From Chrysomallon squamiferum (taxonomy: Eukaryota > Animalia > Mollusca), in assembly GCA_012295275.1 (NCBI GenBank), contig CM022674.1, positions 9,238,001-9,302,000 of the forward strand: 64,000 nt of DNA. Reading direction: 5' to 3'. Positions 28,011 to 58,110 of this stretch are shown in pieces. The notes below the pieces were generated by a model, which was given only the letters and a program-made list of their open reading frames with translations, did no database searches and was not told the DNA's origin. How positions within the stretch are numbered: the first letter of the stretch is position 1; the number at the start of each line of letters is the position of its first letter. Position numbers and translations under genes: made by a program.

Positions 28011-31000
28011 CTTGATAAATGTTTAGCACTGGTTTGATGACTCGTAAAACAAATAAAAGACAACTGATCTATTTGTATCTGAAGTCTGACAGTCATGTAA
28101 AACATATACCGTGTTATCCAGACATTACTCTGATATGTTCTCACTTTGACATTTGACGAGAAACCTGAAACTGAATATAGACACTTGAGTGTTTTTGTTT
28201 TTATACGTGTTATGTTAGGATATGTAAAGTCACACATAAACGTGTTGTCGCATCTCACATTGAAATATTGCTTCATGTGGAATCCAAAGAGAATAACAAA
28301 CAACAACATTTATCTTTTATTATTTAAAAATATCCAACTCTTTATAGACAAGAACTAAATTACAGTAATCAGAATAAAGTGTAGTTTATCTGCATATTGT
28401 TGACAAATATGCATTCATTTATGTATAATAAAACTATTTATAGGATTGCAGGATGAATTTAAGATTACAACAATATGACACCGTGTCACATTCTGTTAAG
28501 TCTTGAAACTGATTCTGAATATTTTCTTTTACAGCAAAACTATCATAATTGCCGAATGTATGCACTACATAACCGAGTTTTGAAGCTATCCAGCTAAAAA
28601 TGTGACAGAAATAAAAATAAAACGGAATTTTTTTTTTTAAAGATTATCAAAAGTAAATTATGATTCACAAAAAATGTGTATTACTTGGACGTTTTTTTCT
28701 TCTGTATGTGTAGGTTCATATAACAAAGTAAATTTAAACTCACAAACTGAAGCTTTCAAAATCTCCTGCTCTGGCAGTTTTTGGCGAGACAGATTACAGA
28801 TAAAACTGACATTGTCACTGGCTAACCATAAATAAATAAATAAAAGTGGAGTGGCCATGTTACATAATTCAGGGAATAACTTCGATGACTCGACAGTAAT
28901 GTTTTCTGATGCTGATAAAACGTAAATTTTATATAAAGTTTCATCCTTTATTCGTTACATGTAATGCATTTATTTAGACTGACAATAGGATTCAGTTTGT
29001 TCAACTGTTTGCTAATATTATAATTTATCTGTCTGTTTCTAGGACATTGTTGAAAGCAATTTGCATTCTGCAGGAAAACCGTTCGTCTGCAGTAGGTCTA
29101 CAGGAGATGTAAAATCCCTTGGTGGTGTAAAATCTTAGATAATTAATAAAGATAATTCAGAATAAACATCAGCAAATACAATTTTTCTGTATCATATAAA
29201 TTTATTTAATTAACCTAAATAACTGTAATGTACAGGCTCATTACATTATTTTAATCAAAGACTGATCTGTCTGGCCGGTTTTTTTCTGACTTGTAGTCTC
29301 TGAAAAGTCGAGTGATAACACGAACCAACTGAAAATCATTATTATATTATTTTATTTTATACTTGCACGTTTACAATTTTTCATATATTTATTTATTTAT
29401 TTATTTGTTTAACTGTTAATTTATCGACGTTCTTTCACTGAAGTGTGTTTTCAAACGTTTCAGTACTGGACTCAGTTACCGAATAACAACAAGAAAAAAT
29501 AACAGATTTTCAAACTTTTTTCACAGTATATTCCTAATTTTATTTTTAAAATGGATATATATAAATAAATAAATAAATAAATAAATAAATACCCCCCAAA
29601 ATGACATCCTACACTTTTTGTCAGATAAACAAACGTGGTGAAAGAATATCGATTAAGATTTGATCCAGGAACTTATATTGTCAGATTGTTTTTGTATTAA
29701 ATGAAACTTTAATTTTTTTTCTTACACGAAATTTTATCGCAGTTGTTCGACTGATGGCAAAAGTGTTTGTATTTCTTTGTAAAGAACTACGTCAAAAGTT
29801 TCCTATAGCAAGGCCATGGTTAGCAAAGAGCTGACCAACAGTTCCTTAAAAAAATAACTCAAATAAGTTTATTATTATTATTATTTTTATTTAAAGGACA
29901 CCCATGAAATTCACCATATACGCGAGAAATGACATGAACATGAAAATGTTTCTAATACGGTAATTTAATTTTTACCGTTTTTGAATTTATCAGATAATAT
30001 TCGAAACAAGATAAACAGAAATTATTTTAAGAAAGTGTATATTCTTTTACTTTTATATGTTTTTGGTTTTGCGAGGAGTTAAATTTATTTTGAATGTCCA
30101 TCATACAGCTGATCATGGGTACAGGTTTCCAATAAATATATATTTTTTTAATATTTATATTCTGTTTCAAATTAATGTCAAAACATAAAATAATGGCCTA
30201 CTGTTTTTCTTTTTGTTTTTAATTATACTTTTCTCTTCTCTCCAAATAAATTATTACGTTTTGTTTTTGTCGATATCATATAGGCTAAACTGTGTATTAA
30301 TAAATAAATAAATTAACTCATTTATTCATGAACTTCAGCTGAAAACAGCGAAATAGACAACTAACAATACTAACAATTATTATGATGATCATAAAATTAA
30401 AAATATGACGAAACTGAACTGATTTAAAGAGATATTAAATCGGCGAGTTTGTTGCATATAAATTACAATATATGAATGTGTGAGCGTGTCTATGTATTTG
30501 TATGGTGTGTTTGCGAGTACGTGAGACATGTGCATGTGTGTATCTACATAAGTATGCGTATTTATATATATGAGTGTATGGTATACATATGTGTTCGTGA
30601 GTGTGTGTGTGATATTCATGTATGCATCTCAAAATAAAAAGTCTACTATTTGTAGTGATTATTCATGAGGTTCTTTATCAGACGCGATTTCGAGTCACGG
30701 CCAAGGATTCAAAATTTTTGTGTGATTTATAAGACAATAGTTACCATGTGGCTGGAATCAGTTGATGTGTTACTCTAGTCTGCGCCTGACCCTTATCAAA
30801 AGTCAGTCTCCTTTTGTACCTGTGTAACAAAAAACTGTTGCTTTTGCGATAAAATTATTTCTTTGCATTTTATGTTATTCAACTATATCTTAATGAATCT
30901 CGTGCCACTTACTCCAGTGTTATATTTGGCGTGACAGACTATAATCACGAGTAATCACTCTTGCTATCAAACCACGACATTGCTATTTTCAGGTTCTGTA

Positions 31001-31023
31001 TTGTCTAGTTTGTGATTTAAGAG

Positions 31024-31077
31024 TATTTATAAACTGCTTGATCGCTGGGCTTTTTTTCTAAAATTCAACTTGACCAA
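31024..31077 (+). promoter_or_regulatory. TATA-like box and short 5' non-coding exon of the peptide-precursor gene
   Basis: TATTTATAAA at ~31024; donor CAA|GTAAGT at ~31077; matching acceptor TTTCACAG| two bases before the ATG at 31557. Confidence 0.5.
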
Positions 31078-31556
31078 GTAAGTATTTTTATTTCTTTGTT
31101 TTTTCTTTTTTAAATTATGAAATTATTTAAAAGCATTAGTTATGACAGTGAATAATTAGCTGTATAATCTCTTGTTAGAATAGCTTTTAGCTCAGTGTAT
31201 TTTTGTACGATTTTTGTTTTTATTTCTATTTCTTATGCGGATATAAAAAAGGCGTATTAACAGTATAAAACAACTTCAGCTTGACAACCATAACAAATCA
31301 TCCAGTTTCTCATCATTTACCCTAACATTCTTTCGAATTTCTAAATTTCTATCTCCTGTATAAACAATTTAGGAACTAAAATAATACTGAAGCATGACGA
31401 ATCGCGTTTTTATCGTTTCTTTTTCTGTGTTTAGATATATGTATGTTTTGTTTTTTAAAATCATCCGTTTCCCTCCTTTATTTGTCGTACGTGTGTCTGT
31501 GTATACGCATCTTTACGTGCTGAAAAATACCTCAGTTATTTTATTCTTTCACAGAT

Positions 31557-34500
31557 ATGAATCCTCTTGTCAGTTTGGTGCTACTGACATGCGTCATTGT
31601 GTCACCTGTTGTCTCGTTTTCATTAGGACTTATGCCACCAACAGACATACTGGAAAAGAAGTCAGGTGAAATGGAGATAACGCCTTCAGTAGCAGAACCA
31701 CCCCCAAAACCCGTAAAGACAGAAGCCACTTCGATTGACAGTGGAATGAGTTAGTATTTTTACTTAACTTATAAACTGATAAACGTAATATAATATATGT
31801 TATTGAACACTGTAAAACTTCGAATATTTGTTATTTTTGGTAACTTTAAAATTAATTAAGTCAGTTTTCTCATTTTCAGGGAGTGTATTCAGACAAGCGA
31901 TAAATAACGGTAACTTACAATGGGATCTCTGCAGAAAGCTATTATCAAAACATGATAATAACAAGAAGTAAGTAGTAAATATTCTAGTAAAGACGAACCT
32001 TAATGCGTAATAAGCAGTCCAACTTCCTTTTCAAGTCTAAATCAGTAAACACGTTTGCATCCTTTTCTTCTTATTAATTAAAATGTCTTTTATTTTAGGA
32101 TACAAAACTGGGAAGATCTTTCAGATGAAGAGGAAACAATAAAAACTAAGTTTCTGCAACTACGGAAGCATACTGTAGATTCATTTACGGAAGCATGCCA
32201 AACAATAAAAATAGTCAGCGAAATAGCGAACAAACTTAGAATAAAAGTCGAGCACAGGGAAGAGGGCGGCGAAGATGACGAAGAAAGCAATGGTCAAAAA
32301 GATAAAAGAGGGCACAGCATGAAGGGAAAGAGAAACAACAAAGATGACGGAGAAGATGACGTAGAAAGCAATGGCCAAAAAGATCAAAGAGGGCACAGCA
32401 TGAAGGGAGAGAGAAACAACAAAGATGACGGAGAAGATGACGAAGAAAGCAAGGTCCAAAATCATCAAAGATGGCACAGCATGAAGGGAAAGAGAAACAA
32501 CAAAGACGACGAAGAAAGCAATGGTCAAAAAGATAAAAGAGGGCACAGCATGAAGGGTAAGAGAAACAACAAAGATGACGGAGAAAGCAATGGCCAAAAT
32601 CATCAAAGAGGGCACAGCATGAAGGGAGAGAGAAACAACAAAGACTGTGGCGAAGGTGACGAAGAAAGCAATGACAAAAAAGATCAAAGAGGGCACAGCA
32701 TGAAGGGAAAGAGAAACAACAAAGACGACGGAGAGAGCAATGACAAAAAAGATCAAAGCTGGCACAGCATGAAGGGAAAGAGAAACAACAAAGAGGACGT
32801 CGAAGATGACGAAGAAAGTAATGGTCAAAACGATCAAGGATGGCACAACATGAAGGGAAAAAGAAACAACAAAGATGACGAAGAAGGCAATGGTCAAAAA
32901 GATAAAAGAGGGCACAGCATGAAGGGAAAAAGAAACAACAAAGATGACGAAGAAATTAATGGTCAAAAAGATAAAAGAGGGCACAGTATCAAGGGAAAGA
33001 GAAACAACAAAGATGATGAAGAAAGCAATGGTCAAAAAGATAAAAGAGGGCACAGCATGAAGGGAAAGAGAAACAACAAAGATGACAAAGAAGATGACGA
33101 AGAAAGTAATGGTCAAAATGATCAAAGAGGGCACAGCATGAAGGGAAAAAGAAACAACAAAGACGACGAAGAAAGCAATGGTCAAAAAGATAAAAGAGGG
33201 CACAGCATGAAGGGAAAGAGAAACAACAAAGAGGACGTCGAAGATGACGAAGAAAGTAATGGTCAAAACGATCAAGGATGGCACAGCATGAAGGGAAAAA
33301 GAAACAACAAAGATGACGAAGAAGGCAATGGTCAACAAGATAAAAGAGGGCACAGCATGAAGGGAAAAAGAAACAACAAAGATGACGAAGAAATTAATGG
33401 TCAAAAAGATAAAAGAGGGCACAGTATCAAGGGACAGAGAAACAACAAAGATGACGAAGAAAGCAATGGCCAAAAAGATAAAAGAGGGCACAGCATGAAG
33501 GGAAAGAGAAACAACAAAGACGACGAAGAAAGCAATGGTGAAAAAGATAAAAGAGGGCACAGCATGAAGGGAAAGAGAAACAACAAAGACGACGAAGAAA
33601 GCAATGGTCAAAAAGATAAAGAGGGCACAGCATGAAGGGAAAGAGAAACAACAAAGACGACGAAGAAAGCAAAGCAATGTCAAAAAAGATAAAAGTGGGC
33701 ACAGCATGAAGGAAAGAGAAAAACAAAGATGACGGAGAAGATGACGAAGAAAAAAAGAGAAAAAAAACAATGTCCAAAATCATCAAAGATGGCACAGCAT
33801 GAAGGGAAAGAGAAGAAACAATGGTCAAAAAGATAAAAGAGGGCACAGCATGAAGGGAGAGAGAAACAACAAAGATGACGGAGAAGATGACGAAGAAAGC
33901 AAGGTCCAAAATCATCAAAGATGGCACAGCATGAAGGGAAAGAGAAACGACAAAAACCATGGCGAAGGTGACGAAGAAAGCAATGGCCAAAAAGATCAAA
34001 GAGGGCACAGCATGAAGGGAAAGAGAAACAACAAAGATGACGTCGAAGTTGACGATAAAAGTAATGGTCAAAATGATCAAAGAGGGCACAGCATGAAGGG
34101 AAAAAGAAACAACAAAAAAAACGGTGAAAAGACGAAGAAAAGGCAATGGTCAAAAAAATAAAAAGAGGGCACAGCATAAAGGGAAAGAGAAACAACAAAG
34201 ATGACGTCGAAGTTGACGATAAAAGTAATGGTCAAAATGATCAAAGAGGGCACAGCATGAAGGGAAAAAGAAACAACAAAGAAGGCGGTGAAAATGACGA
34301 AGAAGGCAATGGTCAAAAAGATAAAAGAGGGCACAGCATAAAGGGAAAGAGAAACAACAAAGATGACGGCGAAGATGATGAAGAAAGCAATGGCCAAAAT
34401 CATCAGAGATGGCACACTATCAAGGGACAGAGAAACAACAAAGATGACCAAGAAAGCAATGGTCAAAAAGATAAAAGAGGGCAGAGCATGAAGGGAAAGA

Positions 34501-34923
34501 GAAACAACAAAGAAGGCAGTAAAGATGACGAAACAAGCAATGGCCAAAAATATAAAAGAGGGCACAGCATGGAGGGAAAGAGAAACAACAAAGAGGGTGG
34601 TAAAGACGAGAAAGAAAGCAATGGCCAAACAATCTACGAGGACACGGATTTCAGTAAGGTAGTTAAAATTTCCCTTTTCTGTAATAGTGTTGTTTATTTG
34701 ATTAACTGCTTCTGTTTTTGAATACTATTTATTAAAAAGTTAATTTTACTCTAAATAGTTTTGAAAACCTATATTTATTCAAAATACATTTACATCTAAT
34801 CTGGGTTTTTATTTTTTAATTATTATTATTTTTTAGACGGAGGTCTTTTTTCTTTATTATTTATTAAAATGAATTATATTTTAGTTTTCAGGTTCTTCAC
34901 TGAAAAATGGAAATAATAATTAA
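31557..34923 (+). CDS. Secreted repetitive prohormone-like precursor (putative GHSMK-amide family)
   Basis: Signal peptide MNPLVSLVLLTCVIVSPVVSFS; exons 31557-31749, 31880-31967 and 32099-~34655 join in frame (phases 1, 2) into the repeat ORF; terminal exon from 34892 (VLH* or SSLKNGNNN* depending on donor); frameshifts at ~33620-33800 and ~34115-34165 lie mostly in A runs. Confidence 0.8.
32270..34630 (+). repeat. Coding tandem array, ~31 units of 69 or 81 bp
   Basis: Core GGCACAGCATGAAGGGAAAGAGAAACAACAAAGA recurs at 69/81-bp spacing (23 or 27 codons). Confidence 0.97.
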
Positions 34924-35078
34924 TTCACTAGAATACTGTTACAAACTTTTATGCTATAAATATTACCTTCAAAGCCGCTACGTGTTTATCTTTTTGATTT
35001 TGTATTTCGAGATATAATTTGGTTTGTATGCAGAAAAGATATTAAAAATCAGCAATACCGTCATCACCATCATTTCTA

Positions 35079-35126
<48 letters not shown>

Positions 35127-37318
35127 TATAATTATAATGTCATTGAAATAAATTCAATAATTCTGCTTTTTTTCTTTATAAAGTACAGTTTAAAGTCAGT
35201 TTTTAGACATTTAATATTAATATTAAGTTAAGATTAGGCACTGGTTTAATTTTAATTATAGTTTTGAAAAAGTTACATCAGCCAAATTCTAAACCCTTTT
35301 CCCGCCTCTGCATAAATATTACTTGTATAAAACAGAAAAGTGAGAAATAGCTTTTCTAGATCAAGTGTTTAAGAATACAGAGCATTATGTCTGAACAAAT
35401 ATAATGATTTATCTTATGGATTTCCTATACATCTGTGATTCCATAAAACTTTTGAACAATACGAGCTGAAATGTCAAAAAGGTCCATGCATATCACTGAA
35501 CCACTAATTTTTAATTAAATTCCCAACAAGGAAAAAAAAAAAAAAAAAAAACTGCAAGAAAGAAATCAGGTTGCGGAAATATCTATGATACTATAAATCA
35601 GAATTATCATTAGAAAAAATAAATTACGTTTTACATATAATATATTTTTAAAAACGTTGGTTATATGATTTAAATAAAATAAAATAAAATAATTAGAAAA
35701 GGTTTCTAAACTCTGGTAGTATGATTGAAAAACAGCGTTATTATTACTATTATTATTATTATTCGAGTACTTTCACAAAAAACAATAATAAAATGTAACT
35801 AAACATTATATATATATAATTTTGACAAAATTGGCTGTGAACGCTTGAATTCAAACGACCATATCTAAGCATCCAATTGATTAATTTTGTTTAAATGGGT
35901 GATTTAAGAAGGATTCAAAAAATATATTCTTTTTTTTTTTTTTTTTTTATCTAGGGATAATTTAAAAAGTGATGATCTTTTGACTTTTATTTTGACCTTG
36001 TTGTTAAGCTGTCCTTGAAATAAATTTACTACACAATATAAACGGAAATGGATTTCTGAAATTTCTTGTTGAAATGAAGTTGCAGTATGCATATCTGAAC
36101 CTAACGTTAGAATGGCTGTGAATTTTCAGCAAAATAGTATGGGTTGAGGTTTATTCCATTGTATGATATGACTTGGTATTACCCAAAGAGTGCAGAAATT
36201 TGTTATATAATATATAACTCTGGTAAAAGAAAAAAAAGAAAAAGAAAATAAAATACATTTACTTTTCTAGTCTACTTTTGCATGAAGATTAGAAATATGG
36301 AGTATAAAAAGCCATGACTTCAATTTAATATAATTATTAGAGTTTAGAAAAATGGTTATTTGCAGCAATACTGGTCGAACGATACATAAAACAATATACC
36401 TTGAAAATATACAAAATATAGTTAAAATAGGTGGGGTTTTTTCCCCCATTTCCACCAGCACAGAATAATTGTGTCGGATGTGGAAATATTTAATTAAAAG
36501 TGTTTTTTTCGGTCGTTTCTGGATAACCTTTAGAAGCTTATTATAGAGGTGTTAAACACCAGAGTAACAGTATCGGTGACTTGTTGCTGTTTTATTTTTT
36601 CATGGAATTATTAATCCATATTTAATTGTCATAACATCTGCTGTGATCTTCGATATTGTCAACATCTTCAACGACACGTGATTCGTATATTACATCAAAC
36701 AGTCAGACAATCTATAATAAATCAATACATTTTATTTGCTGATCGACATAATTATAATAATCGAATTAAAATAATACAAATAACAACAACAACAACAACA
36801 ATAATAATAATGTAGTAATAGTAATGCAGTAAAAGAAAGTTGTTGTAGTAGTTATAAAACCACTGTTAGCAGTAGTGGTAAAGACAGTAGTTGGTATTAG
36901 TAGTAGAATTTTAGATGAATGCATTTACCTGTTGGTTTCGTTTGGTGAAAAACCAGATCATAATCGTCGAATTAACATCGAGCGTGATTCAAATAAAAAG
37001 AACAGTCTTCAAGACAAACACAAACTGATTTGTAATGGATAAATAATATAAATATATAAATATAAACAATAAATTTAAAAAAACATTTTTTCAACATTTG
37101 AGCGCAGAGATGTCCTATTTTATTTGCAAAATTAAGATAAGAATAAACAAAGATAAAGAGAGACATTAGTGATGAACTAACAGCATAATGGTGAGTTGAA
37201 ACTTAATACTAATAAACGTGACACCAAATGTGGTTGAGGGATAAATGCAGACAGAAAGACATTTCAAAATCTCACTTTGCATGCCTTTTCCTGAGCAAAA
37301 TTTGTAACCAATTCAGCT
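34855..37318 (+). repeat. Segmental duplication block A (copy A' at 40663-43141)
   Basis: Near-identical ~2.46 kb; visible differences mostly in homopolymer and microsatellite lengths. Confidence 0.97.
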
Positions 37319-40300
37319 GAAAAAGTGTGATCCATTCCTGTCATTTTGGAGCATAATGTGATAAACAGTGAATATCTCATGTAGCTTCAATCCACTATAC
37401 ATATATTATAAATCGAATAAAGCATTTTATGAGTTTTAAACAAGTTACTATAACTCATGAATTTTAATTTTTTAATGAACCAATTTATTGTACACCAGTG
37501 TTTGTCAACAGAAGTGTGAGCCAATCAGAAAGCACTGTTGATGTCATGTGACCTGAACTGACTTGTCATTATCCATCCTCTGAAGCATGGGCTTTGAGTC
37601 CATGTTACATCCGCAATATTTTGCTCACAACCATAAAATTGTTGAAATTAAGCACAATAGTAGTTAATAAGCATATCTATACTGCAAACATATTTTGACT
37701 GTTAGACGCCCAAGATTTTTCCAGTGACTGGTGACTTTGTTGACATTTTCAGAAATATCTTTACATCAATAATTTGATAAACTTCTTGATTAATAATAAA
37801 AAATAGATAGAGGTGGTAGAGGGTTTAGCAATGTGTTAAGATAACTGGGGTTTCACAATGTATGATATGGAAATGAAATGATATTAACATAGCTTTGAAA
37901 TTTACCACAGTAAACAGAATTACTCATTTAGCTAAATAAACATTGTCTCTTGTGGAACAGAAAACAAAAAATGCTGTGGACTAAATTCAATAAATTCATT
38001 GGGAAGAGATATTTATTCCTAATAAGCACAGAACACATTTATTTCTGTTACAAAAATAAAGGAGTTGATTGAATGATGATAGCTTTCAAAGGATAAATGA
38101 CTTCAGTTAAAAGCTCAGAGCTTTCTTCCACAAATAGTCAAATACAACTCAGAAATGCTGTGTTTGTGTGTATGTCAACATTTACAGCCTTTTTTTTCAT
38201 GAGAGGCAAGATGCCTTGTATAATTGGGATTTTGAGTATAGTAGAGCTGTGTGAATCATGGGACCAACAAATAAGTTCAGTTTACAGAAGTTTCACTGTG
38301 TCTTGAAATATTCAATATCTCAAAGGAAGTTACATCAGCATTTAGTATCATACAAATGTTTCTAATTATGAACAGTCAATGAAAGCATTTTTTTGAAAAA
38401 TTTGTTGAATAGATGTAAAAGAATATTTTTTTTCAGATCTTGGTTTTGAGCTGACATTCAAAACAGCTGATGATGCTGGATTAGCTCTAGTTAAATATGG
38501 AGAATTTCTCTATGAAAACCTTGTATTGTTTTCACCATCAGTTCAAGGTATGTTCCAAATATTTATTATTTTATATTTAATATTTAATAACAGTATTTGC
38601 AAACTGTATTTTCACTGACAGTGTTTTACTAGATCCACAGTCCATCCCATATTCATGAAATTGTAAACTTACTAGTGTAGTAAAGAGACAGAAATTATGC
38701 TTTCAGAAAGAAGTCATAACTAAAGAATGAGTTCTATCTTGTTACCTTTTCAGAGTTCATTTAATGAATACAGTTAGTAAGAATTAGTTTCCTCCCTCCC
38801 ACCATGTATGCCAGTATTTTGACTGGACCTGTTAAAAATTGTTCTAAAAAGTTATTATTAATATGTCAGAATATTTTATCCATCCATTCAGAATAATTTA
38901 CATTCTACTATTGTTAACATTATTTATATTTAAAAATAGTAAATTTCACTTCTTCTTTTTCCATAGAGTTTGGTGGTTCTATTGACATTCCGGCTATAAC
39001 AAATTTCATTGATGGTGGAGGAAATGTATTGGTTGCAGCAAGTTCTTCTATAGGTTTGTTGAATTTATATTCATTTAGTCATTACTTTCATTTAGTTAGA
39101 CAATTTAGATTAAACCTTATTTTTCAAATATTTACTTATATTTGCAATGAAAGGTTATTCTGATGATAGATTTATCTGCTCATTTTTTTTGATATCATGT
39201 CTTGAAGGTGATTGTATCATAATTATTTTAGTAATATGCTGTACTGTAAAAATGATTTATAACTACAGTAAAACCTGTCAAAACACAGAATTGTGCTGTT
39301 TCCTTTAAAATGGCCATATTTCTCTGAATTTTGGTTTGTATAAACTGGACAGAATTAAATTAACCTCAAATAACTACTCTTTAGTAGTTGTATGAATGAA
39401 TTCTTGATTTGTACATCTGTTGTGTGTGTATAGCATGTTTGCCTTTATTGTTTTTATGAAGGAGCAGAAATACTTCACTTCCATATAGAAATGTATCTCA
39501 TAAACATATAAACATATAACTCATTTTAATTCAACAAATAAATTAGTACATATTATATTTTTAATTAATATAAACATGGTAAAAGTAATGTTTATTTACA
39601 ATTAGTGGAGGTGCTGAAATGTTTCTATTCCATGGAGATATAGAATCAGTTAAATTTGTAAATTATCTTTAATATAAATGTGGAAAAGTAATATTTATTA
39701 TGAAAACTTATAAACGTTTTGCATGTCTCATCCAAGAAATCTTTGTTTCTTTACATAAAAATCTATCATAGCTGAAGTAGAAAAGGAAACAAGGAAACAT
39801 TTGTATATTTTATTAATAAACTTTATAATTACTGTAAAACTGAATATTTATTATGTATTTGCTTGTGTATGTACAGGTGATCCATTCTTGTGAGTTGGCC
39901 ACTGAGTGTGGAGTTGAATTTGATGAAGAGAAAACAGCTGTGATTGATCATCTCAACTATGATAAAGCTGATACTGGACATGTAAGAGTTTTATATTGCC
40001 ACTAGCAAAGTTCACCAATATTCATATTGATAAAGATATAAGCATACATGGAAGATTATGTAATTTGTTGTATTTTCAGTTATCATTATTTTCTTATGAT
40101 GAAACTGAAAAGAAGTCTAAAATAAATATGATTATTCAATAATGTTCTGATCTGTACATAAGAGGCTTTCCTTGCTTATTTTGTGTGGATTTTTTTTTTG
40201 TCTGTTGCAACCCATTTTATTTAGTTACTTACTAATGAATTGCTATTCAGATTGAAAAACCCTGCCCTAGATCATTCTAAGGATAGTCTTGACTGAATAA

Positions 40301-40666
40301 AGATTTACTTTCATCAAAATTTTCTAAATTGTTTATGATGTCATTTTTCCAAGATTAGAGTGTGCTAATTGTATGACACAAATCTACAGTTTTCACATAA
40401 CAAAGTCTCCCTTTTTTATGGACATCCTGTTTACAATATTTGGAAGATAAATCCTGGCAAAAATACTATCCCCCCAATAATGTCATCTTGATCTTGACTT
40501 ACAGAAAATTATAATATAAAAAAACTATTTACCAGCTGTATAGGATCCAAGGACTAAATGGCAATGCTTTAAAGTTAAAATATTTTCACAACAGTTTTTA
40601 AATTTTTTTAATTTTCTATTAATTTCAAAGGTTTATATATTTTCACTTTAAGATTACTCAAGTATT
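37317..40666 (+). repeat. Segmental duplication block B (copy B' at 45603-48954)
   Basis: Near-identical ~3.35 kb from CTGAAAAAGTGTGATCC to GATTACTCAAGTATT. Confidence 0.97.
38437..39981 (+). pseudogene. DDOST: Orphan duplicate of DDOST exons 2-4
   Basis: Exons 38437-38547, 38967-39053, 39877-39981; no exon 1 or promoter; exon 4 reads CCATTCTTGTGAG versus CCATTGCGCGAG in the intact gene (+1 nt, TGA at 39891). Confidence 0.85.
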
Positions 40667-40889
40667 ATTTATTAAAATGAATTATATTTTAGTTTTCAGG
40701 TTCTTCACTGAAAAATGGAAATAATAATTAATTCACTAGAATACTGTTACAAACTTTTATGCTATAAATATTACCTTCAAAGCCGCTCACGTGTTTATCT
40801 TTTTTTGATTTTGTATTTCGAGATATAATTTGGTTTGTATGCAGAAAAGATATTAAAAATCAGCAATACCGTCATCACCATCATTTCTA

Positions 40890-40937
<48 letters not shown>

Positions 40938-43141
40938 TATAATTATAATGTCATTGAAATAAATTCAATAATTCTGCTTTTTTTCTTTATAAAGTACAGT
41001 TTAAAGTCAGTTTTTAGACATTTAATATTAATATTAAGTTAAGATTAGGCACTGGTTTAATTTTAATTATAGTTTTGAAAAAGTTACATCAGCCAAATTC
41101 TAAACCCTTTTCCCGCCTCTGCATAAATATTACTTGTATAAAACAGAAAAGTGAGAAATAGTTTTTCTAGATCAAGTGTTTAAGAATACAGAGCATTATG
41201 TCTGAACAAATATAATGATATATCTTATGGATTTCCTATACATCTGTGATTCCATAAAACTTTTGAACAATACGAGCTGAAATGTCAAAAAGGTCCATGC
41301 ATATCACTGAACCACTAATTTTTAATTAAATTCCCAACAAGGAAAAAAAAAAAAAAAAAAAAAAAAAACCGACTGCAAGAAAGAAATCAGGTTGCGGAAA
41401 TATCTATGATACTATAAATCAGAATTATCATTAGAAAAAATAAATTACGTTTTACATATAATATATTTTTAAAAACGTTGGTTATATGATTTAAATAAAA
41501 TAAAATAAAATAATTAGAAAAGGTTTCTAAACTCTGGTAGTATGATTGAAAAACAGCGTTATTATTACTATTATTATTATTATTCGAGTACTTTCACAAA
41601 AACAATAATAAAATGTAACTAAACATATATATATATAATTTTGACAAAATTGGCTGTGAACGCTTGAATTCAAACGACCATATCTAAGCATCCAATTGAT
41701 TAATTTTGTTTAAATGGGTGATTTAAGAAGGATTCAAAAATATATTCTTTTTTTTTTTTTTTTTTTTTTATCTAGGGATAATTTAAAAAGTGATGATCTT
41801 TTGACTTTTATTTTGACCTTGTTGTTAAGCTGTCCTTGAAATAAATTTACTACACAATATAAACGGAAATGGATTTCTGAAATTTCTTGTTGAAATGAAG
41901 TTGCAGTATGCATATCTGAACCTAACGTTAGAATGGCTGTGAATTTTCAGCAAAATAGTATGGGTTGAGGTTTATTCCATTGTATGATATGACTTGGTAT
42001 TACCCAAAGAGTGCAGAAATTTGTTATATAATATATAACTCTGGTAAAAGAAAAAAAAAAAAAGAAAATAAAATACATTTACTTTTCTAGTCTACTTTTG
42101 CATGAAGATTAGAAATATGGAGTATAAAAAGCCATGACTTCAATTTAATATAATTATTAGAGTTTAGAAAAATGGTTATTTGCAGCAATACTGGTCGAAC
42201 GATACATAAAACAATATACCTTGAAAATATACAAAATATAGTTAAAATAGGTGGGGTTTTTCCCCCATTTCCACCAGCACAGAATAATTGTGTCGGATGT
42301 GGAAATATTTAATTAAAAGTGTTTTTTTCGGTCGTTTCTGGATAACCTTTAGAAGCTTATTATAGAGGTGTTAAACACCAGAGTAACAGTATCGGTGACT
42401 TGTTGCTGTTTTATTTTTTCATGGAATTATTAATCCATATTTAATTGTCATAACATCTGCTGTGATCTTCGATATTGTCAACATCTTCAACGACACGTGA
42501 TTCGTATATTACATCAAACAGTCAGACAATCTATAATAAATCAATACATTTTATTTGCTGATCGACATAATTATAATAATCGAATTAAAATAATACAAAT
42601 AAATAACAACAACAACAACAACAATAATAATAATGTAGTAATAGTAATGCAGTAAAAGAAAGTTGTTGTAGTAGTTATAAAACCACTGTTAGCAGTAGTG
42701 GTAAAGACAGTAGTTGGTATTAGTAGTAGAATTTTAGATGAATGCATTTACCTGTTGGTTTCGTTTGGTGAAAAACCAGATCATAATCGTCGAATTAACA
42801 TCGAGCGTGATTCAAATAAAAAGAACAGTCTTCAAGACAAACACAAACTGATTTGTAATGGATAAATAATATAAATATATAAATATAAACAATAAATTTA
42901 AAAAAACATTTTTTCAACATTTGAGCGCAGAGATGTCCTATTTTATTTGCAAAATTAAGATAAGAATAAACAAAGATAAAGAGAGACATTAGTGATGAAC
43001 TAACAGCATAATGGTGAGTTGAAACTTAATACTAATAAACGTGACACCAAATGTGGTTGAGGGATAAATGCAGACAGAAAGACATTTCAAAATCTCACTT
43101 TGCATGCCTTTTCCTGAGCAAAATTTGTAACCAATTCAGCT
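40663..43141 (+). repeat. Segmental duplication block A'
   Basis: Copy of 34855-37318, including the precursor gene's putative terminal exon and the hAT 3' tail. Confidence 0.97.
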
Positions 43142-44200
43142 AAATCAAGTGATGAAGCCTGAGCATGTTCAGTTGATATTGTTGATATTCTTTTGCAACA
43201 TTGTAGAACGAATGTAAGATTTTATAAGGCTGAGCTTTGAGAAACTATGCTCACCACTTGCCACTGATACTGGAAGTGTGAAAAGGATCCTGGATGCAAT
43301 AGCAACATTTGTGAAATTATCCAAAGTTTTTGTTGAAGTGTGAAAAGTAGTACTTCTTTTGGTGGCATAGCCTTCGAGCTATGGCTAATAGCTCACAGCA
43401 TAGATATTCAGCATCAGTATCTTTGTTTCCATTATGCTCCAAAGATTTTTCCAACTTCTTGCAGCCCTGAATTATATCATCAGTAGATTTATCGTTTACT
43501 TTTGTATACATTATACAGAAAGCCAAATTATAATTGTCCAGCTGTAGAAATCTCTCAACACATTGTATGGCCATGTCTAAAATTGCATAATAAAATCGTA
43601 CTTTAAACTTGTTTTGGATATTGTGGTGCCTGTTCTTGGGCATCATTTTCAAACTGCCGTTTCTTTCTCATGGTTCTAATTCGATCTGTTTCAAAGTCTG
43701 GCACTACCTCTAGTTCATTTGCATACACCAAAACCTTTTCCGACCTGCAGTCCAAAAGATATTTCTTAACTGTCCGCAACTGTCTGGTAGCTGCATTTAA
43801 ATCAGCTTCCTGAATTAGTAGTACCTTGTTTGTAAGGTGACTTCAAACATGATGTTGTACCATATAACACGTAATACTACAAATCTGAACTTACTGATTG
43901 CACCAGCAAGGGTCTTGGCTTGATATCGAGAATTATTGCCAGAGGGACCTGTTAAACATGTATCATTAAAGATCTGATCAGAGCATCAGATATACCACCT
44001 ATATGATATTTTAGTGGCTTAAGAGATTCTATCCGACTCTCCCATCTCGTTTCACACAAAACTTTAACAGTGATATCCAAGTCTGATATATATGACTGGT
44101 TAGAATTTGCCAACGCTTAATTTGATGAAGAGAAGTAGTTATAGATCTGTCCAGCGATACTGAAGAAAGAATTTCTCTGGACGAACGTATTTCAGGAAGA
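43087..44200 (-). mobile_element. Degenerate hAT transposase remnant (ZMYM1-like/hAT dimerisation domain)
   Basis: Minus-strand fragments VKVLCETRWESRIESLKPL (~44020-44075), FYYAILDMAIQ..ERF, FTNVAIASRILFTLPVSVASGEHSFSKLSLIKSYIRSTM (43203-43315) and AELVTNFAQEKACKVRF*; several frameshifts and stops. Confidence 0.85.
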
Positions 44201-45099
44201 ACCCCTCTTCCTCTGCTAGCCCCTTAATTTGTTCTGCTTTTCATTTCCGGTACTGGGCTCCATTGGGTTTTGGGTTTTTTTTTTTTTTAACGCATCGGCA
44301 CCTTCAAAAATATAAACATTTGTATTTTGTTTAGCGAATATTTAAATGTATTCATTGTAACAGAACAGTAATATCTTTCAGCAAATATAATTATAATCTT
44401 TTGAATAATTTTAACTTTGGAATAGCTATTGCAGTTATTTCGACTTCACAGATAAATAAATATATCTTACCATATAAGATAATATTAAATAAATTCTCCA
44501 TGAATCTGTCTTATAATCTGCTAGAGCCAGGACGTTAATTATTGATTTCATAAATTTCAAGAGAGTTATTTGTTCAGTAAAAATTTGTTTCGTTAACTGC
44601 TTTTGGTAAAGGCAGTTTGTTTAAAGAAAGTCAGTTAGTTTTTTCACTTAAGGCTGAATATATCTCGAAATTCGATTCGGGAAAGAGGAATGCAGCTTTC
44701 CTTAGATAGAGAATAAATGTATTGTTTGAAAACATGAAAATTTAACTGAAAAAATTATAGCATACAGATTAATTAGTTGCCCTAATAATAATAAATATAG
44801 CTGTATTTTACACTTCCTCTGTCATTGTCTCACACTGATTTGTCTACGACCATGATGCTTTCCAGCCTATAGGCTGATAGCCCTTGCCAGAATTTAGCAC
44901 ACAAAGAAGCGAGGCGGATTTTCTTTCTAATATTGTCTATAATGTTATACATGTATATCATTCTGTCAAAACTGATACAGTTTTAATGTTCAGCTTGCTT
45001 TGGAAAGCTAATAATTAAATTTTTTAGAAGCATTTTAGTTTACATATTTGTGTAGGTGCTCTAATCATGTGGGAGGAAGTAAAAGGATAAAAATAAAAG

Positions 45100-48000
45100 A
45101 TGGGAGGCGTGAAGCTTTTGGTTGTTGTAGGCATTTTGTTATTAGCTAAGGTTTATGCGGGTAATAAACGCACTTTAGTGTTGGTTGACAACTGGTCCAT
45201 AAGGGAGACACATTCAACATTTTTTAGATCTTTAAGAGGTAATATTGTTTTAATACTGTTTATAATAGATTAGGTACTTGTAGGCTGGTAAAAATGGTGC
45301 CACGTTGTGAGGGAGCAATCATTATTAAAAATGTACATGGTTAGGAAATAAAATCACAATGAATTAGTACTTGAGCAGTTTCTTTGGTTAAAAAATATTA
45401 ATAATTAAATGGAAAGAACCTTTGTAAGACATGGACAAATTGGTTCAAATGACAAACGTTTTTATTAAATTGACAAAATATTCAAAATTATTAATTTCCT
45501 AAAACATTATACATCATTGGAAAGAGCAAAAAATTACTATTGAAATGACACCATGATCTCATTGATAGCATTGATATGAAAATATTTTTTCTTCATAATC
45601 TACTGAAAAAGTGTGATCCATTCCTGTCATTTTGGAGCATAATGTGATAAACAGTGAATATCTCATGTAGCTTCAATCCACTATACATATATTATAAATC
45701 GAATAAAGCATTTTATGAGTTTTAAACAAGTTACTATAACTCATGAATTTTAATTTTTTAATGAACCAATTTATTGTACACCAGTGTTTGTCAACAGAAG
45801 TGTGAGCCAATCAGAAAGCACTGTTGATGTCATGTGATCTGAACTGACTTGTCATTATCCATCCTCTGAAGCATGGGCTTTGAGTCCATGTTACATCCGC
45901 AATATTTTGCTCACAACCATAAAATTGTTGAAATTAAGCACAATAGTAGTTAATAAGCATATCTATACTGCAAACATATTTTGACTGTTAGACGCCCAAG
46001 ATTTTTCCAGTGACTGGTGACTTTGTTGACATTTTCAGAAATATCTTTACATCAATAATTTGATAAACTTCTTGATTAATAATAAAAAATAGATAGAGGT
46101 GGCAGAGGGTTTAGCAATGTGTTAAGATAACTGGGGTTTCACAATGTATGATATGGATATGAAATGATATTAACATAGCTTTGAAATTTACCACAGTAAA
46201 CAGAATTACTCATTTAGCTAAATAAACATTGTCTCTTGTGGAACAGAAAACAAAAAATGCTGTGGACTAAATTCAATAAATTCATTGGGAAGAGATATTT
46301 ATTCCTAATAAGCACAGAACACATTTATTTCTGTTACAAAAATAAAGGAGTTGATTGAATGATGATAGCTTTCAAAGGATAAATGACTTCAGTTAAAAGC
46401 TCAGAGCTTTCTTCCACAAATAGTCAAATACAACTCAGAAATGCTATGTGTTTGTGTGTATGTCAACATTTACAGCCTTTTTTTTCATGAGAGGCAAGAT
46501 GCCTTGTATAATTGGGATTTTGAGTATAGTAGAGCTGTGTGAATCATGGGACCAACAAATAAGTTCAGTTTACAGAAGTTTCACTGTGTCTTGAAATATT
46601 CAATATCTCAAAGGAAGTTACATCAGCATTTAGTATCATACAAATGTTTCTAATTATGAACAGTCAATGAAAGCATTTTTTTGAAAAATTTGTTGAATAG
46701 ATGTAAAAGAATATTTTTTTTCAGATCTTGGTTTTGAGCTGACATTCAAAACAGCTGATGATGCTGGATTAGCTCTAGTTAAATATGGAGAATTTCTCTA
46801 TGAAAACCTTGTATTGTTTTCACCATCAGTTCAAGGTATGTTCCAAATATTTATTATTTTATATTTAATATTTAATAACAGTATTTGCAAACTGTATTTT
46901 CACTGACAGTGTTTTACTAGATCCACAGTCCATCCCATATTCATGAAATTGTAAACTTACTAGTGTAGTAAAGAGACAGAAATTATGCTTTCAGAAAGAA
47001 GTCATAACTAAAGAATGAGTTCTATCTTGTTACCTTTTCAGAGTTCATTTAATGAATACAGTTAGTAAGAATTAGTTTCCTCCCTCCCACCATGTATGCC
47101 AGTATTTTGACTGGACCTGTTAAAAATTGTTCTAAAAAGTTATTATTAATATGTCAGAATATTTTATCCATCCATTCAGAATAATTTACATTCTACTATT
47201 GTTAACATTATTTATATTTAAAAATAGTAAATTTCACTTCTTCTTTTTCCATAGAGTTTGGTGGTTCTATTGACATTCCGGCTATAACAAATTTCATTGA
47301 TGGTGGAGGAAATGTATTGGTTGCAGCAAGTTCTTCTATAGGTTTGTTGAATTTATATTCATTTAGTCATTACTTTCATTTAGTTAGACAATTTAGATTA
47401 AACCTTATTTTTCAAATATTTACTTATATTTGCAATGAAAGGTTATTCTGATGATAGATTTATCTGCTCATTTTTTTTGATATCATGTCTTGAAGGTGAT
47501 TGTATCATAATTATTTTAGTAATATGCTGTACTGTAAAAATGATTTATAACTACAGTAAAACCTGTCAAAACACAGAATTGTGCTGTTTCCTTTAAAAAT
47601 GGCCATATTTCTCTGAATTTTGGTTTGTATAAACTGGACAGAATTAAATTAACCTCAAATAACTACTCTTTAGTAGTTGTATGAATGAATTCTTGATTTG
47701 TACATCTGTTGTGTGTGTATAGCATGTTTGCCTTTATTGTTTTTATGAAGGAGCAGAAATATTTCACTTCCATATAGAAATGTATCTCATAAACATATAA
47801 ACATATAACTCATTTTAATTCAACAAATAAATTAGTACATATTATATTTTTAATTAATATAAACATGGTAAAAGTAATGTTTATTTACAATTAGTGGAGG
47901 TGCTGAAATGTTTCTATTCCATGGAGATATAGAATCAGTTAAATTTGTAAATTATCTTTAATATAAATGTGGAAAAGTAATATTTATTATGAAAACTTAT

Positions 48001-51000
48001 AAACGTTTTGCATGTCTCATCCAAGAAATCTTTGTTTCTTTACATAAAAATCTATCATAGCTGAAGTAGAAAAGGAAACAAGGAAACATTTGTATATTTT
48101 ATTAATAAACTTTATAATTACTGTAAAACTGAATATTTATTATGTATTTGCTTGTGTATGTACAGGTGATCCATTGCGCGAGTTGGCCACTGAGTGTGGA
48201 GTTGAATTTGATGAAGAGAAAACAGCTGTGATTGATCATCTCAACTATGATAAAGCTGATACTGGACATGTAAGAGTTTTATATTGCCACTAGCAAAGTT
48301 CACCAATATTCATATTGATAAAGATATAAGCATACATGGAAGATTATGTAATTTGTTGTATTTTCAGTTATCATTATTTTCTTATGATGAAACTGAAAAG
48401 AAGTCTAAAATATAAATATGATTATTCAATAATGTTCTGATCTGTACATAAGAGGCTTTCCTTGCTTATTTTGTGTGGATTTTTTTGTGTCTGTTGCAAC
48501 CCATTTTATTTAGTTACTTACTAATGAATTGCTATTCAGATTGAAAAACCCTGCCCTAGATCATTCTAAGGATAGTCTTGACTGAATAAAGATTTACTTT
48601 CATCAAAATTTTCTAAATTGTTTATGATGTCATTTTTCCAAGATTAGAGTGTGCTAATTGTATGACACAAATCTACAGTTTTCACATAACAAAGTCTCCC
48701 TTTTTTATGGACATCCTGTTTACAATATTTGGAAGATAAATCCTGGCAAAAATACTATCCCCCAATAATGTCAGCTTGATCTTGACTTACAGAAAATTAT
48801 AATATAAAAAAACTATTTACCAGCTGTATAGGATCCAAGGACTAAATGGCAATGCTTTAAAGTTAAAATATTTTCACAACAGTTTTTAAATTTTTTAAAT
48901 TTTCTATTAATTTCAAAGGTTTATATATTTTCACTTTAAGATTACTCAAGTATTGTTAAAAAAAAAAATTATTAACAATTAATTAAACAATAAGTGATGC
49001 AGTTAATTATAATAGTAAATTTTGATTTACAGCATACCTTGATTGTGGCTGATAGTGCCAACTTGCTTGATGCCCCAATGATTGTAGGCAAAAAGAACAC
49101 CTCACCCTTACTTTACAGAGGAGTTGGGTAAGCTTTATATGTATCATGTATGCATGTATTTTTTGTCATCTGCAGGTTTTTATCAATAATTTACAACTGA
49201 AAATATTAATTTATCAATTTTATGTTAATCTGATGTAGAATTCATTTTGGGGTAAAATTTATAGTTTCCAAAATCCATTTGAATTAATTCTTTCGAAATC
49301 AAATAACTATAAAGTTCCAAGTCAGTGAACCATTTATTATTTTAAAAATATAGTACCTGCTCTTGGTTGTTGTATTTAAATATGAAATTGTTTGTTTCAG
49401 TATGGTTGCTGATAGTGAGAATCCTCTTGTTCTCAGCATTCTTCATGCTTCATCCACTGCATACTCACACAACCCAAATGAGAAAATTGAAGAGGTGAAA
49501 CTACTCTTTAACAACTAGTGCAGTATTATTTAGAATTTTAGGAAACTGGATAAGTGAAAGAAAGTACATAAGTGTATATTGAATTTACATAATTTTATTG
49601 AAAAAGCTACTTTTGTCTGTTTGTCCACAAATAAGCTATGTAAGAATATTATGGGCCACAAATCTTACACTGATGAATCAAAGGAATGTTGACTCTCAGT
49701 TCAGTCTGTTTCATTTATATTTTAAGGATTACAGAATAAAAATTGTTTTCATATTTTCAAGTCTCAGAGTCTCTGTGTTTCTTTGTTGCAGTTTCCACAT
49801 GCAGTTGGTAAGAACACACTCCTGATAGCAGCTCTTCAAGCAAGAAATAATGCAAGAGTTGTGTTTTCGGGATCTATAGATTTTTTCAGTGATGAGTTTT
49901 TCCATTCGTCTATACAAAACGCAATTGCAGGAAAACAGTATGTGCTCTTAAAACATTTCATTATGGATATTAAACATATAATTTGATACTAGATTACATT
50001 TTGTTTAGAAATGTTAACAAATTTTATTTGTTGTTTTTTCACATGATGCCATATCCAGTTCCAGTGACTAAAATGTGTTACTTTTTGTCATAGAATTGTT
50101 GCTATTAATTAAGGAAACGAATTGTAGAGGTATTTTGTTACATCCTAATACTGGTAATCTTGAAAGGATCTATCTATTTATAATTCATAGAAAAATCTTT
50201 TTCATTTTTTTCCTTCAGATTTGACAAGTCTGGCAACCAGGAACTTGCACTCAACCTGGCTCGTTGGGTATTTAAAGATAAAGGAGTTCTCAGAGTTGGT
50301 CCTATCAGTCACCATAAAGTGGGCGAAACGAAACCTCCAGCTGCATATACCATCATGGATAATGTAGTATGTTAACATTTTGAGTATGGTTAGGCTTTAA
50401 AATATAATTTCCATAATCCATTTGAATTAATTCTTTTGAAATCAGATAAAAGACTTGACTTTGACTAGCAAAGACTGTAAAGTTCCAAGACAATAAACCA
50501 TTTATTCTTTTAAAAATATAGTACATGGTCTTTGTTGTTGTATTTAAATATGAAATTTTTTGTTTCAGAATCTTTAGATTTATGTTATTCTTCAGGAAAA
50601 CTTCAAAATAAATTGTTAAATGATTTTGTTCTTTTTTCTCAGCATTTTGATATTGTGATTGAGGAGCTTGTTGAAGGAGAATGGAAACACTTTAATGCTA
50701 AAGATGTTCAGCTTGAGTTTGTTCGCATTGATCCATTCATCCGTACAACACTTGACTATCAAAGTTGGTGTATTTTGTATTTTATTAATTTGTAAAAGCT
50801 GGAATAATGCTAATATTTAATAATGTTTCTTTTTTAAACTGAATTTTTATTTTTTGAGGTATTATTACTAATACATTGCACAGTAATGTCACTGTTTAAA
50901 GTGTTCAATTAACTGTACCTTTGGAATCAAACTTTTGGTATTTCAGTTTAAAATTAATCGATTTTTGTTTTTGTCTCTCTTTATTATGTTGTTATGATAA

Positions 51001-56111: not shown

Positions 56112-58064
56112 TCAGATCAGAAAATAGCGCTGAGCAAGAGCCAGTCGTCTTGAGGGAGGACAGGTTAAATAATTCTCCTTTTCCTTTGTTTTCTTGTTCA
56201 GCACATGGACCTTGAAGGACTGAGGATTAACTGCAAATTATGACAATAGCACAAAAAAAAAAAAAAATTAAAACCAAATTGATATTGTTAATGACATCCA
56301 TCATTATATATTTCTCCCTTATTTTAAATATTATTTGTAGTGTTTTTAATGCATGTATAACAACAAAACAGTATAGAAGATGAATGAATACAAGTAAACA
56401 CACTCCTAATCAAGAAATATGCACACACACACACACAGACACACGCACACACACACACACACACTACACTTGCATTTACAAACTTCCTTTTTGTAGCAAA
56501 AGAAATGTCATAATTCATAATTTGCTTCATAAATGGTTCTTACACTATATTCTTTAAAAATTAACAACTTACCTGATAAAAGTGGACAACAATCATTTCT
56601 TATCATGTCTTTTTTCTTGATATTTCTACAGTTCTTAACAGCCTCAGGCTTTTTACTGAGTCCATAACTTTCTACAGTTCCATTGTCAACTGAAGCCTAT
56701 AGTTAAAAATATAAATGAAATGTAAGCAGATAGCTAGCTATTCTTGAAAAATTTGTTGTTCCAATAATATTAAAATAACAAAAGAATTAAAGAGTTTTCA
56801 GTTATTTCCAGTCCAGTCATAAAAGCAAATAATAACAATACATAAAATATATTAATTAAACATAAAAAATTTAAAACAGTATTTCAGAAGACAAAGGATG
56901 GTAACTCTATAATGTGTGGTTTATTCAAACCTGAGATACAAAAACGACACTTCGTGGACCAACTGCTTTGCCATAAGCTCCAAACATTTTGCGTTGTTTC
57001 ACTGGTTGAGGTGTGGGAATTGAAGCATTGGGCATCCCTGACAAAATACAAATGAATACAGATTAAAAATATTTACATATTTTGCTGTGTTGATATATTA
57101 CAAATGCTAATTAAATATTTGACCGTAAATTTATATTTACCCATCTGTGCCCAGGCAATCTGTCCTCCTTTGATAATTATTTCAGGTTTAGTGCCAAAGA
57201 ATGCAGGATCCCATAGTACCAAATCAGCCATTTTGTTAACCTTAAATGATGTGCACAAAATTTCTGTTACTGTTTTGATATAGCTATTTATTTACTGCAC
57301 AGTGTAATACAATGATTTAAAAAATAATTAATAAAATTATAACAAAAGAAAAAGAATAGAAAAAAGATAGAAACAGAAAGAGCAACAACCATTATACAAC
57401 AATAACAAAACACTTTACTGATACCTAATCCCATCACAGATATAAATTACTAAAGCTGACGTACAGTTGAATAAAATACCTCAACAGATCCAATGAGATG
57501 AGACATTCCATGTGCTACAGCTGAGTTGATAGTGTACTTAGCAATATACCTCAACACTCTCTCATTGTCATTGGCACCCTGTTGTATACAAAACAAATTA
57601 TTCAAATTTTGCAATTTTTAACAACATTACAGTAATCAACTATTATTCTCATTCTTCAAGAGTGAGATTAAAAAAGCAATTTTAACCTTAGGATATTCCA
57701 TAACAAAGATATTCTCTTCCCATTAACGTACTGTAATTTTTACAAACCTGACTTCTGATTTGTCAGTTATCATGTTAATAAATAACATCATAATCATTGT
57801 ATTTCTTTTTCTTGTGACTATTTTTTAAATTGTATTTCATTTCTTTCTTTCTTTTATATATATAAGAAAGAAAGAAAGAAACGAAATAGTTTGCATACAT
57901 ATAGCTGCCATAGTTCTTTAGTATAAAAAAGAATTAAATTTCCAAATACCTTTTCTTCAGGTAGTCTTCCTCTGAATCGTTTCATCTTATCTGCTGTTTG
58001 CCATGTTCGGGTGATCACCTCACCCACTCTACCCATAGCCTGAACAATAAGTTAAATATCAGTA

Positions 58065-58110
<46 letters not shown>

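Follow-up and report, generated by a model that had tools for sequence, protein, structure and literature searches.

What does the repetitive locus at 31557–34923 of this stretch encode, and do the short repeated peptides in its product leave the cell as separate molecules? The window is a 64,000-nucleotide stretch of the genome of Chrysomallon squamiferum (GenBank assembly GCA_012295275.1, contig CM022674.1, positions 9,238,001 to 9,302,000), and all positions below are counted from its first letter. We found that the locus is a real spliced gene on the plus strand. Its predicted product has the features by which multi-copy proneuropeptides are recognised, namely a predicted leader, no folded domain, and repeats set between monobasic or dibasic sites with a Gly amide donor. 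Judged from the DNA, it is probably a lineage-restricted precursor in which a known architecture carries a new peptide. We tentatively favour a precursor processed in gill cells to amidated pentapeptides that act as a local signal.

The original prediction had proposed that three exons splice in frame. The join holds, with the intron boundaries corrected by one base: translation from the ATG at 31557 after removal of 31750–31879 and 31968–32098 gives a frame that is open from the leader into the repeat array. The predicted junctions were scored with a matrix trained on 11–12 sites of the urease gene in the same 64-kb window, by which the acceptors at 31879, 32098, and 34891 stand at the 98th–100th percentile of all AG sites; the exon-1 donor at 31750 is weaker (71st percentile), and donors at 31666 and 31741 fit too. 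Of 324 alternative three-exon joins, 14 are open, every one of them through the donor at 31968 and every one retaining the leader, and a direct join of exon 1 to exon 3 through a donor at 31661 is likewise open. The GC content is 0.45, 0.34, and 0.40 in the exons against 0.21, 0.29, and 0.20 in the introns. Upstream lies a candidate 85-nt exon of the 5′ untranslated region (30993–31077), with an acceptor at the 92nd percentile and a donor of consensus type (CAA/GTAAGT) at 31078. A different start is possible as well, given the TATA-like words near 31241 and 31266.

Hydropathy of the spliced product peaks at 3.4 on the Kyte-Doolittle scale over residues 7–15, and the remainder contains no hydrophobic stretch (maximum 0.48 over 19 residues). 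An N-terminal secretion signal is thus predicted, conditional on the splice model. The pro-region that follows spans about 145 residues and contains Cys82 and Cys127, and the first cassette begins at residue 165. AlphaFold2 run without an alignment on the exon-3 part of the pro-region predicted one helix (9–55) with a mean predicted local distance difference test score (pLDDT) of 84.9. A coiled-coil reading of this helix was rejected, as 707 of 5000 shuffled sequences reach its amphipathic moment. No Pfam family was found at an E value of 0.1 in any of the four gene pieces scanned (all but exon 2), which points to the absence of a folded domain.

The array contains 31 cassettes between 32310 and 34583, as had been estimated, and includes every peptide variant named beforehand: GHSMK (18), WHSMK (5), GHSIK (4), and one each of WHNMK, WHTIK, GQSMK, and GHSME. 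Position 1 of the peptide is Gly in 24 copies and Trp in seven, and position 2 is His in 30 of 31. The spacing from unit to unit is exactly 69 or 81 nt in 25 of the 30 intervals, so that clean copies differ in length by 12 nt and preserve the frame. The array expanded by block duplication, with 295 of 300 nucleotides identical at an offset of 438 nt. The cassette layout first proposed, a peptide between KR and GKR, is present in 13 copies and departs from that scheme in the rest: nine have a single Arg upstream of a peptide followed by GKR, three have GKR with no upstream basic site, and six lack GKR (GER in three, GQR in two, one garbled). GKR is therefore present in 25 of 31 cassettes, and 22 combine it with a basic site on both sides. 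The conservation and substitution counts were confined to the 27 undamaged copies, with the four damaged ones left aside; in these 27 the G-x-R motif keeps its Gly and its last Arg throughout (27/27), and an Arg precedes the peptide in 24. When a single unit was shuffled 200,000 times, 1.4% of the shuffles placed both Arg residues in a [KR]R context with one G[KR]R; the pattern was picked after the fact and the copies descend from one ancestral unit, and we take this result as modest support for a processing grammar.

The frame does not continue unbroken through the array. The leader and the two-Cys pro-region are indeed linked to the repeats, as the original prediction held, yet the assembled frame comprises 605 residues with a stop ending at 33635 and contains 18 of the 31 cassettes; seven more lie in a shifted middle part and six in the last open piece. 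Twelve small indels, together with lengthened A runs, fall in five intervals grouped in two patches, and a net total of three one-base slips brings the reading back to the first frame at 34167. Such a pattern of indels with lengthened A runs resembles an unpolished long-read consensus, and the two frame breaks are probably consensus errors. If so, the full protein would be about 955 residues long, with an intact mass of about 100 kDa. With T making up only 8% of the array, an open frame counts for little by itself. A 532-residue open reading frame on the minus strand (32181–33779), rich in Phe, Val, and Leu, was rejected as a gene and read as the antisense shadow of the purine-rich coding repeat. 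The features of the gene are collected below with the neighbouring urease gene.

Table. Coordinates of the precursor gene and of the urease gene within the 64,000-nt window
Feature	Position	Strand	Basis
Pyrimidine tract and AG acceptor, 2 bases 5′ of the ATG; end of a likely 5′ untranslated region intron	31540–31554	+	Sequence; 89th percentile of AG sites
Coding exon 1: predicted signal peptide (about residues 1–20) and Pro-rich linker	31557–31749	+	Hydropathy
Intron 1, GT-AG, phase 1; donor position less certain	31750–31879	+	
Coding exon 2, 29 residues, holds Cys82	31880–31967	+	
Intron 2, GT-AG, phase 2	31968–32098	+	Donor 96th, acceptor 100th percentile
Start of exon 3: pro-region without repeats, holding Cys127 and predicted to form one long helix, followed by the first acidic spacer	32099–32309	+	
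31 cassettes [GW]-H-S-[MI]-K-G-[KEQ]-R with acidic spacers, period 69 or 81 nt	32310–34583	+	
Garbled patch 1: four units with small indels, frame lost	33555–33840	+	
Garbled patch 2: one unit with three small indels, original frame back afterwards	34084–34166	+	
Last open piece, 169 residues, 6 cassettes, no signal peptide; matches repeats listed for CsqKR_Scaf192_1.66	34146–34653	+	
Intron 3, donor 34654 or 34659	34654–34891	+	Donors 78th / 96th percentile, acceptor 99th
Short terminal coding exon; stop 34921–34923 (donor 34654) or 34901–34903 (donor 34659)	34892–34923	+	
Intron-rich animal urease	56118–62963	-	

Part of this gene has been catalogued before. In the available portions of PMC7142155 and its supplementary files, on which the statements about that study rest, Supplementary Data 3 lists a Chrysomallon squamiferum model, CsqKR_Scaf192_1.66, whose residues 6–161 are repeat units with GHSIK-GKR and the unique GHSME-GKR. 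Judging by these repeats we equate it with the gene described here, of which it appears to span the last six cassettes only and so to lack the leader. The model is catalogued merely as low-complexity (RLCD), with no peptide reading, and the terms neuropeptide and prohormone were not found in the available main text. The same table lists a LASGLI-amide precursor (CsqKR_Scaf269_4.6) and another unlabelled, precursor-like multi-copy repeat (CsqKR_Scaf102_2.22, period 42, ending FHL-GKR). A 'neuropeptide precursor' in the scale list, CsqKR_Scaf451_2.40, has another identifier and was set aside as a different gene.

The source data of the same study place CsqKR_Scaf192_1.66 among the genes highly expressed in the gill, with a fold change of 41.5 (n = 5) in a bulk comparison of gill, scale, foot, mantle, and oesophageal gland. 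In the accessible part of sheet S1, the column headed 'Scale highly expressed' duplicates the gill column row for row. We regard gill as the valid tissue because the 'Scale' rows repeat the gill rows while the annotated scale and mantle lists, as available, omit the model. On this expression the precursor is not a shell or sclerite protein. The available supplements of PMC11871041 gave no 'Scaf192' row and no motif, in sheets that hold no sequences and may use different identifiers. A neuroendocrine convertase, 7B2, and an amidating lyase are encoded by the species (published tables, as available); as all three peak in mantle or scale epithelium, general nerve content is unlikely to explain the gill enrichment. 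The gill also carries sensory bursicles and a putative osphradium (PMC4470333, in the part available). The precursor-like architecture of the original prediction stands, and its neuropeptide or pheromone label stays a proposal: gill enrichment is the sole expression evidence, and it comes from a comparison outside which the nerve cord lay.

Taken together, the leader, the pro-region, and the 31 cassettes, 25 of them ending in G-K-R, and the gill enrichment of the matching model are consistent with the following route. With the frameshifts read as consensus errors, a protein of about 955 residues would be cut at KR or single Arg to release GHSMK-NH2, WHSMK-NH2, GHSIK-NH2, N-extended forms, and acidic spacers. 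The chemistry is established: a convertase cuts, carboxypeptidase E trims the basic residues, and PAM turns the exposed Gly into an amide. Each chain could yield up to 22 free pentapeptide amides and three N-extended amides, along with some non-amidated forms, and the [M+H]+ values computed for the three predicted pentapeptide amides are 558.282, 687.340, and 540.325. The source would be specialised gill cells, either a secretory epithelium or the sensory bursicles, and not nerves in general, and the peptides might act on a receptor governing cilia, muscle, blood flow, or conspecifics. We choose a local signal because most amidated peptides encoded as tandem identical copies act as receptor ligands. 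That the precursor is processed at all seems to us reasonably probable; that its products serve mainly as signals is a tentative view.

Several observations weigh against this reading. Both ideal sites, KR and GKR, flank the peptide in only 13 of the 31 cassettes, and five of the 27 clean copies have GER or GQR, where amidation is not expected. The ratio of non-synonymous to synonymous change (dN/dS) among copies, which rests on 10 synonymous and 27 non-synonymous changes over 20 codons, is about 0.45–0.7 in the peptide and 0.5–0.9 in the spacer and gives no sign of peptide-specific purifying selection; the spacer NNK is as invariant as the peptide in this comparison of paralogous copies within one gene. 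A hydrophilic pentapeptide with a Lys-amide end is unlike most known neuropeptides. That the convertase, 7B2, and the amidating lyase peak in mantle or scale epithelium and not in gill, in tables among which no annotated gill list was found, is a mild argument against classical gill processing. Finally, no homologue was found in a searched collection that includes Gigantopelta proteins, and a phmmer search of 1.84 billion representatives gave no real homologue.

The invariance of the spacer is among the features that would suit a protein left largely uncut, a disordered polyampholyte of gill mucus, glycocalyx, secretory-granule matrix, or filament skeleton in which KR and GKR are parts of basic blocks. 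The repeats are highly charged (K 72, D 59, N 56, G 54, E 42, and R 31 of 415 residues), KR or GKR has been lost repeatedly, the matching model was catalogued as a low-complexity gene, and its expression is gill-specific and not nerve-wide. Against this, the convertase context of both unit Arg residues is reached in so small a share of the shuffles, and the KR sites of a secreted disordered chain would be hard to shield from convertases. The polyampholyte alternative that accompanied the original prediction is thus still a strong rival as a gill product, although we consider it rather unlikely; judged by expression, its shell or sclerite-matrix version falls away with the absence of the matching model from the available scale and mantle lists. 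Far more improbable is a gene with true frameshifts that is in decay or yields a shortened product of 605 residues. Frame-breaking indels do occur in five of 30 intervals and dN/dS among copies is weakly below 1, but the indels are confined to two patches with lengthened A runs, three net single-base slips restore the frame, 25 intervals are clean, and no in-frame stop was found in the clean copies. The matching model is moreover strongly gill-enriched (PMC7142155, as available), and the truncated form would still hold 18 cassettes.

Other readings accept the cuts and assign the products differently. The pentapeptides may be mucosal metal chelators or defence peptides, whose freed Xaa-His N-terminus would bind Cu(II) through amine, amide, and imidazole nitrogens while the acidic spacers bind other cations at a gill surface bathed in metal-rich vent water. 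His2 is kept in nearly every cassette while position 1 varies. Xaa-His peptides (Xaa not Pro) use a three-nitrogen site, with a dissociation constant of 0.24 pM for Cu(GHK) at pH 7.4, and GHTD and a WHW- alpha-factor analogue behave likewise (PMC7503498, in the part available). The published material available describes an iron-enriched habitat and a responding metal tolerance gene, and the myticalins of mussel gill are a precedent for prepropeptides that combine KR cleavage and amidation with an anionic part (PMC5577615, as available). Nevertheless, His2 is conserved no more than Lys5, Gly, Arg, or the spacer NNK, the net charge is far under that of myticalins, and the copper chemistry does not demonstrate a function because any Xaa-His peptide binds copper; on balance this explanation is unlikely. 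A bolder version, by analogy, would have the scaly-foot lineage turn a neuropeptide-type scaffold into a gill polyprotein from which amidated Xaa-His pentapeptides are produced in bulk and secreted to chelate copper, while the spacers released with them bind cations. The result would be an animal peptide metallophore suited to vent water, which might also signal when bound to copper. We regard it as a decidedly improbable elaboration. Very doubtful, too, is descent from a gastropod enterin precursor as a highly derived paralogue in which an HSFV-amide end drifted to HSMK-amide. Deroceras enterins end in G-H-S-F-V-G-K-R and have acidic spacers and single-Arg sites, with the same GHS-xx-GKR register, but MK stands here in place of the FV-amide end, the compared enterins are 8–10 residues long, and no enterin precursor scored in the word-indexed search or in phmmer.

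Given these competing readings, we examined how far the gene and its peptide have relatives elsewhere. A word-indexed protein search with the 507-residue exon-3 frame against targets of 278–888 residues gave none among 7,993 candidates, and a query including exon 1 against longer proteins gave none of 33 at an E value of 10. The phmmer search (108 residues) produced a single match (P0001), a bacterial repeat protein that was rejected because its score was a summed one; its best BLASTP alignment reached 25.4 bits and 23% identity. ESM Atlas queries returned no usable match. Metagenome contigs gave 594 pattern matches, none confirmed, and 18 single matches to a degenerate pattern, none encoding HSMKGKR. 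A blank homologue search tells little about expression, because the host urease likewise lacks a near-identical protein (best 93%). GHSMK was not found in a full-text literature search outside whose scope most subscription papers fall, six variant peptide terms gave nothing relevant there, and among the listed papers on both Chrysomallon and neuropeptides none, judged by title, dealt with this gene. Neither the peptide in the readable part of the PMC6425005 data nor the motif in the available supplements of PMC7736800 was found. The suggestion that the peptide is foreign to known families is thereby borne out, in that no described precursor was matched in the homology and literature searches; the peptide is unreported in the literature searched, and a 3′ fragment of its gene was already catalogued.

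The neighbours in the window include a GYF-domain gene, an LPMO, triosephosphate isomerase, a sugar/organic-ion transporter, OST48, and urease. Over 669 residues the urease shares 86.4% identity with that of Gigantopelta aegis (next best 76.6%), and the two are sisters at 100/100 in a 23-row tree from which three partial rows were left out and which includes no named limpet, vetigastropod, or caenogastropod; the host is thus likely to be a vent snail of peltospirid type. A urease accessory G gene on the same scaffold as CsqKR_Scaf192_1.66 is enriched in the symbiont-bearing oesophageal gland (PMC7142155, as available). The LPMO gene (PF03067, 13070–14439) continues into a Cys-rich, Ser/Thr-rich C-terminal part; it encodes a copper enzyme and is probably unrelated to the precursor. 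A 5.8-kb tandem duplication (34855–40685 and 40663–48972, 98.8–99.3% identity) copies the terminal exon of the precursor gene (at about 40700) and part of the OST48/DDOST gene, and its second copy carries an insertion of about 2.4 kb (43155–45603) with a decayed transposase-like frame. This duplication may be an uncollapsed haplotype.

The probable precursor nature of the gene stayed hidden because the published model appears to cover a 3′ fragment without a signal peptide. That model shares the repeat units and spacers described here and differs in that its repeats start at residue 6, apparently with no signal peptide. The present analysis supplies exact masses, a tissue, and two functional hypotheses, a gill signal and copper binding. 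If the protein is uncut, it would be a more ordinary gill polyampholyte.

Among known systems, the enterin precursors of Aplysia and Deroceras resemble this gene in being multi-copy, in the GHS-xx-GKR register, in their acidic spacers, and in mixing KR with single-Arg sites. They differ in yielding FV-amides of 8–10 residues where five-residue MK-amides are predicted here; the enterin C-terminus H-S/N-F-V-amide has no counterpart, with an FV end in 0 of 31 cassettes, and sequence homology was not found. Molluscan multi-copy proneuropeptides of the FMRFamide, achatin, and LASGLV types, as defined in the available part of PMC6425005, share a signal peptide, the lack of a folded domain, repeats between monobasic or dibasic sites, and a Gly amide donor, whereas the precursor described here has a polar Lys-amide end, gill enrichment, and no orthologue found. 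Myticalins (PMC5577615, as available) are alike in gill expression, an intron just 5′ of the ATG, KR cleavage, a Gly amidation signal, and an anionic partner segment, but each precursor carries one Arg-rich peptide of 23–42 residues (pI above 11, over 10% Arg) in contrast to 31 pentapeptides with one Lys and no Arg. With the Cu(II)-binding Xaa-His peptides GHK, GHTD-amide, and yeast alpha-factor, the predicted mature peptides share a start in G-H or W-H, a chemical analogy without homology in which the free N-terminus is here a prediction. The SPalpha and SPbeta pheromone precursors of Sepia officinalis, in the published descriptions available, are likewise lineage-specific secreted multi-peptide precursors of non-neural tissue, and they differ in carrying five or six different, partly Cys-rich peptides of the oviduct gland instead of tandem identical copies. 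The survey of molluscan proneuropeptides in PMC6425005, as available, records few lineage-specific innovations, and if our reading is true, this precursor would be one such rare innovation in a model vent animal.

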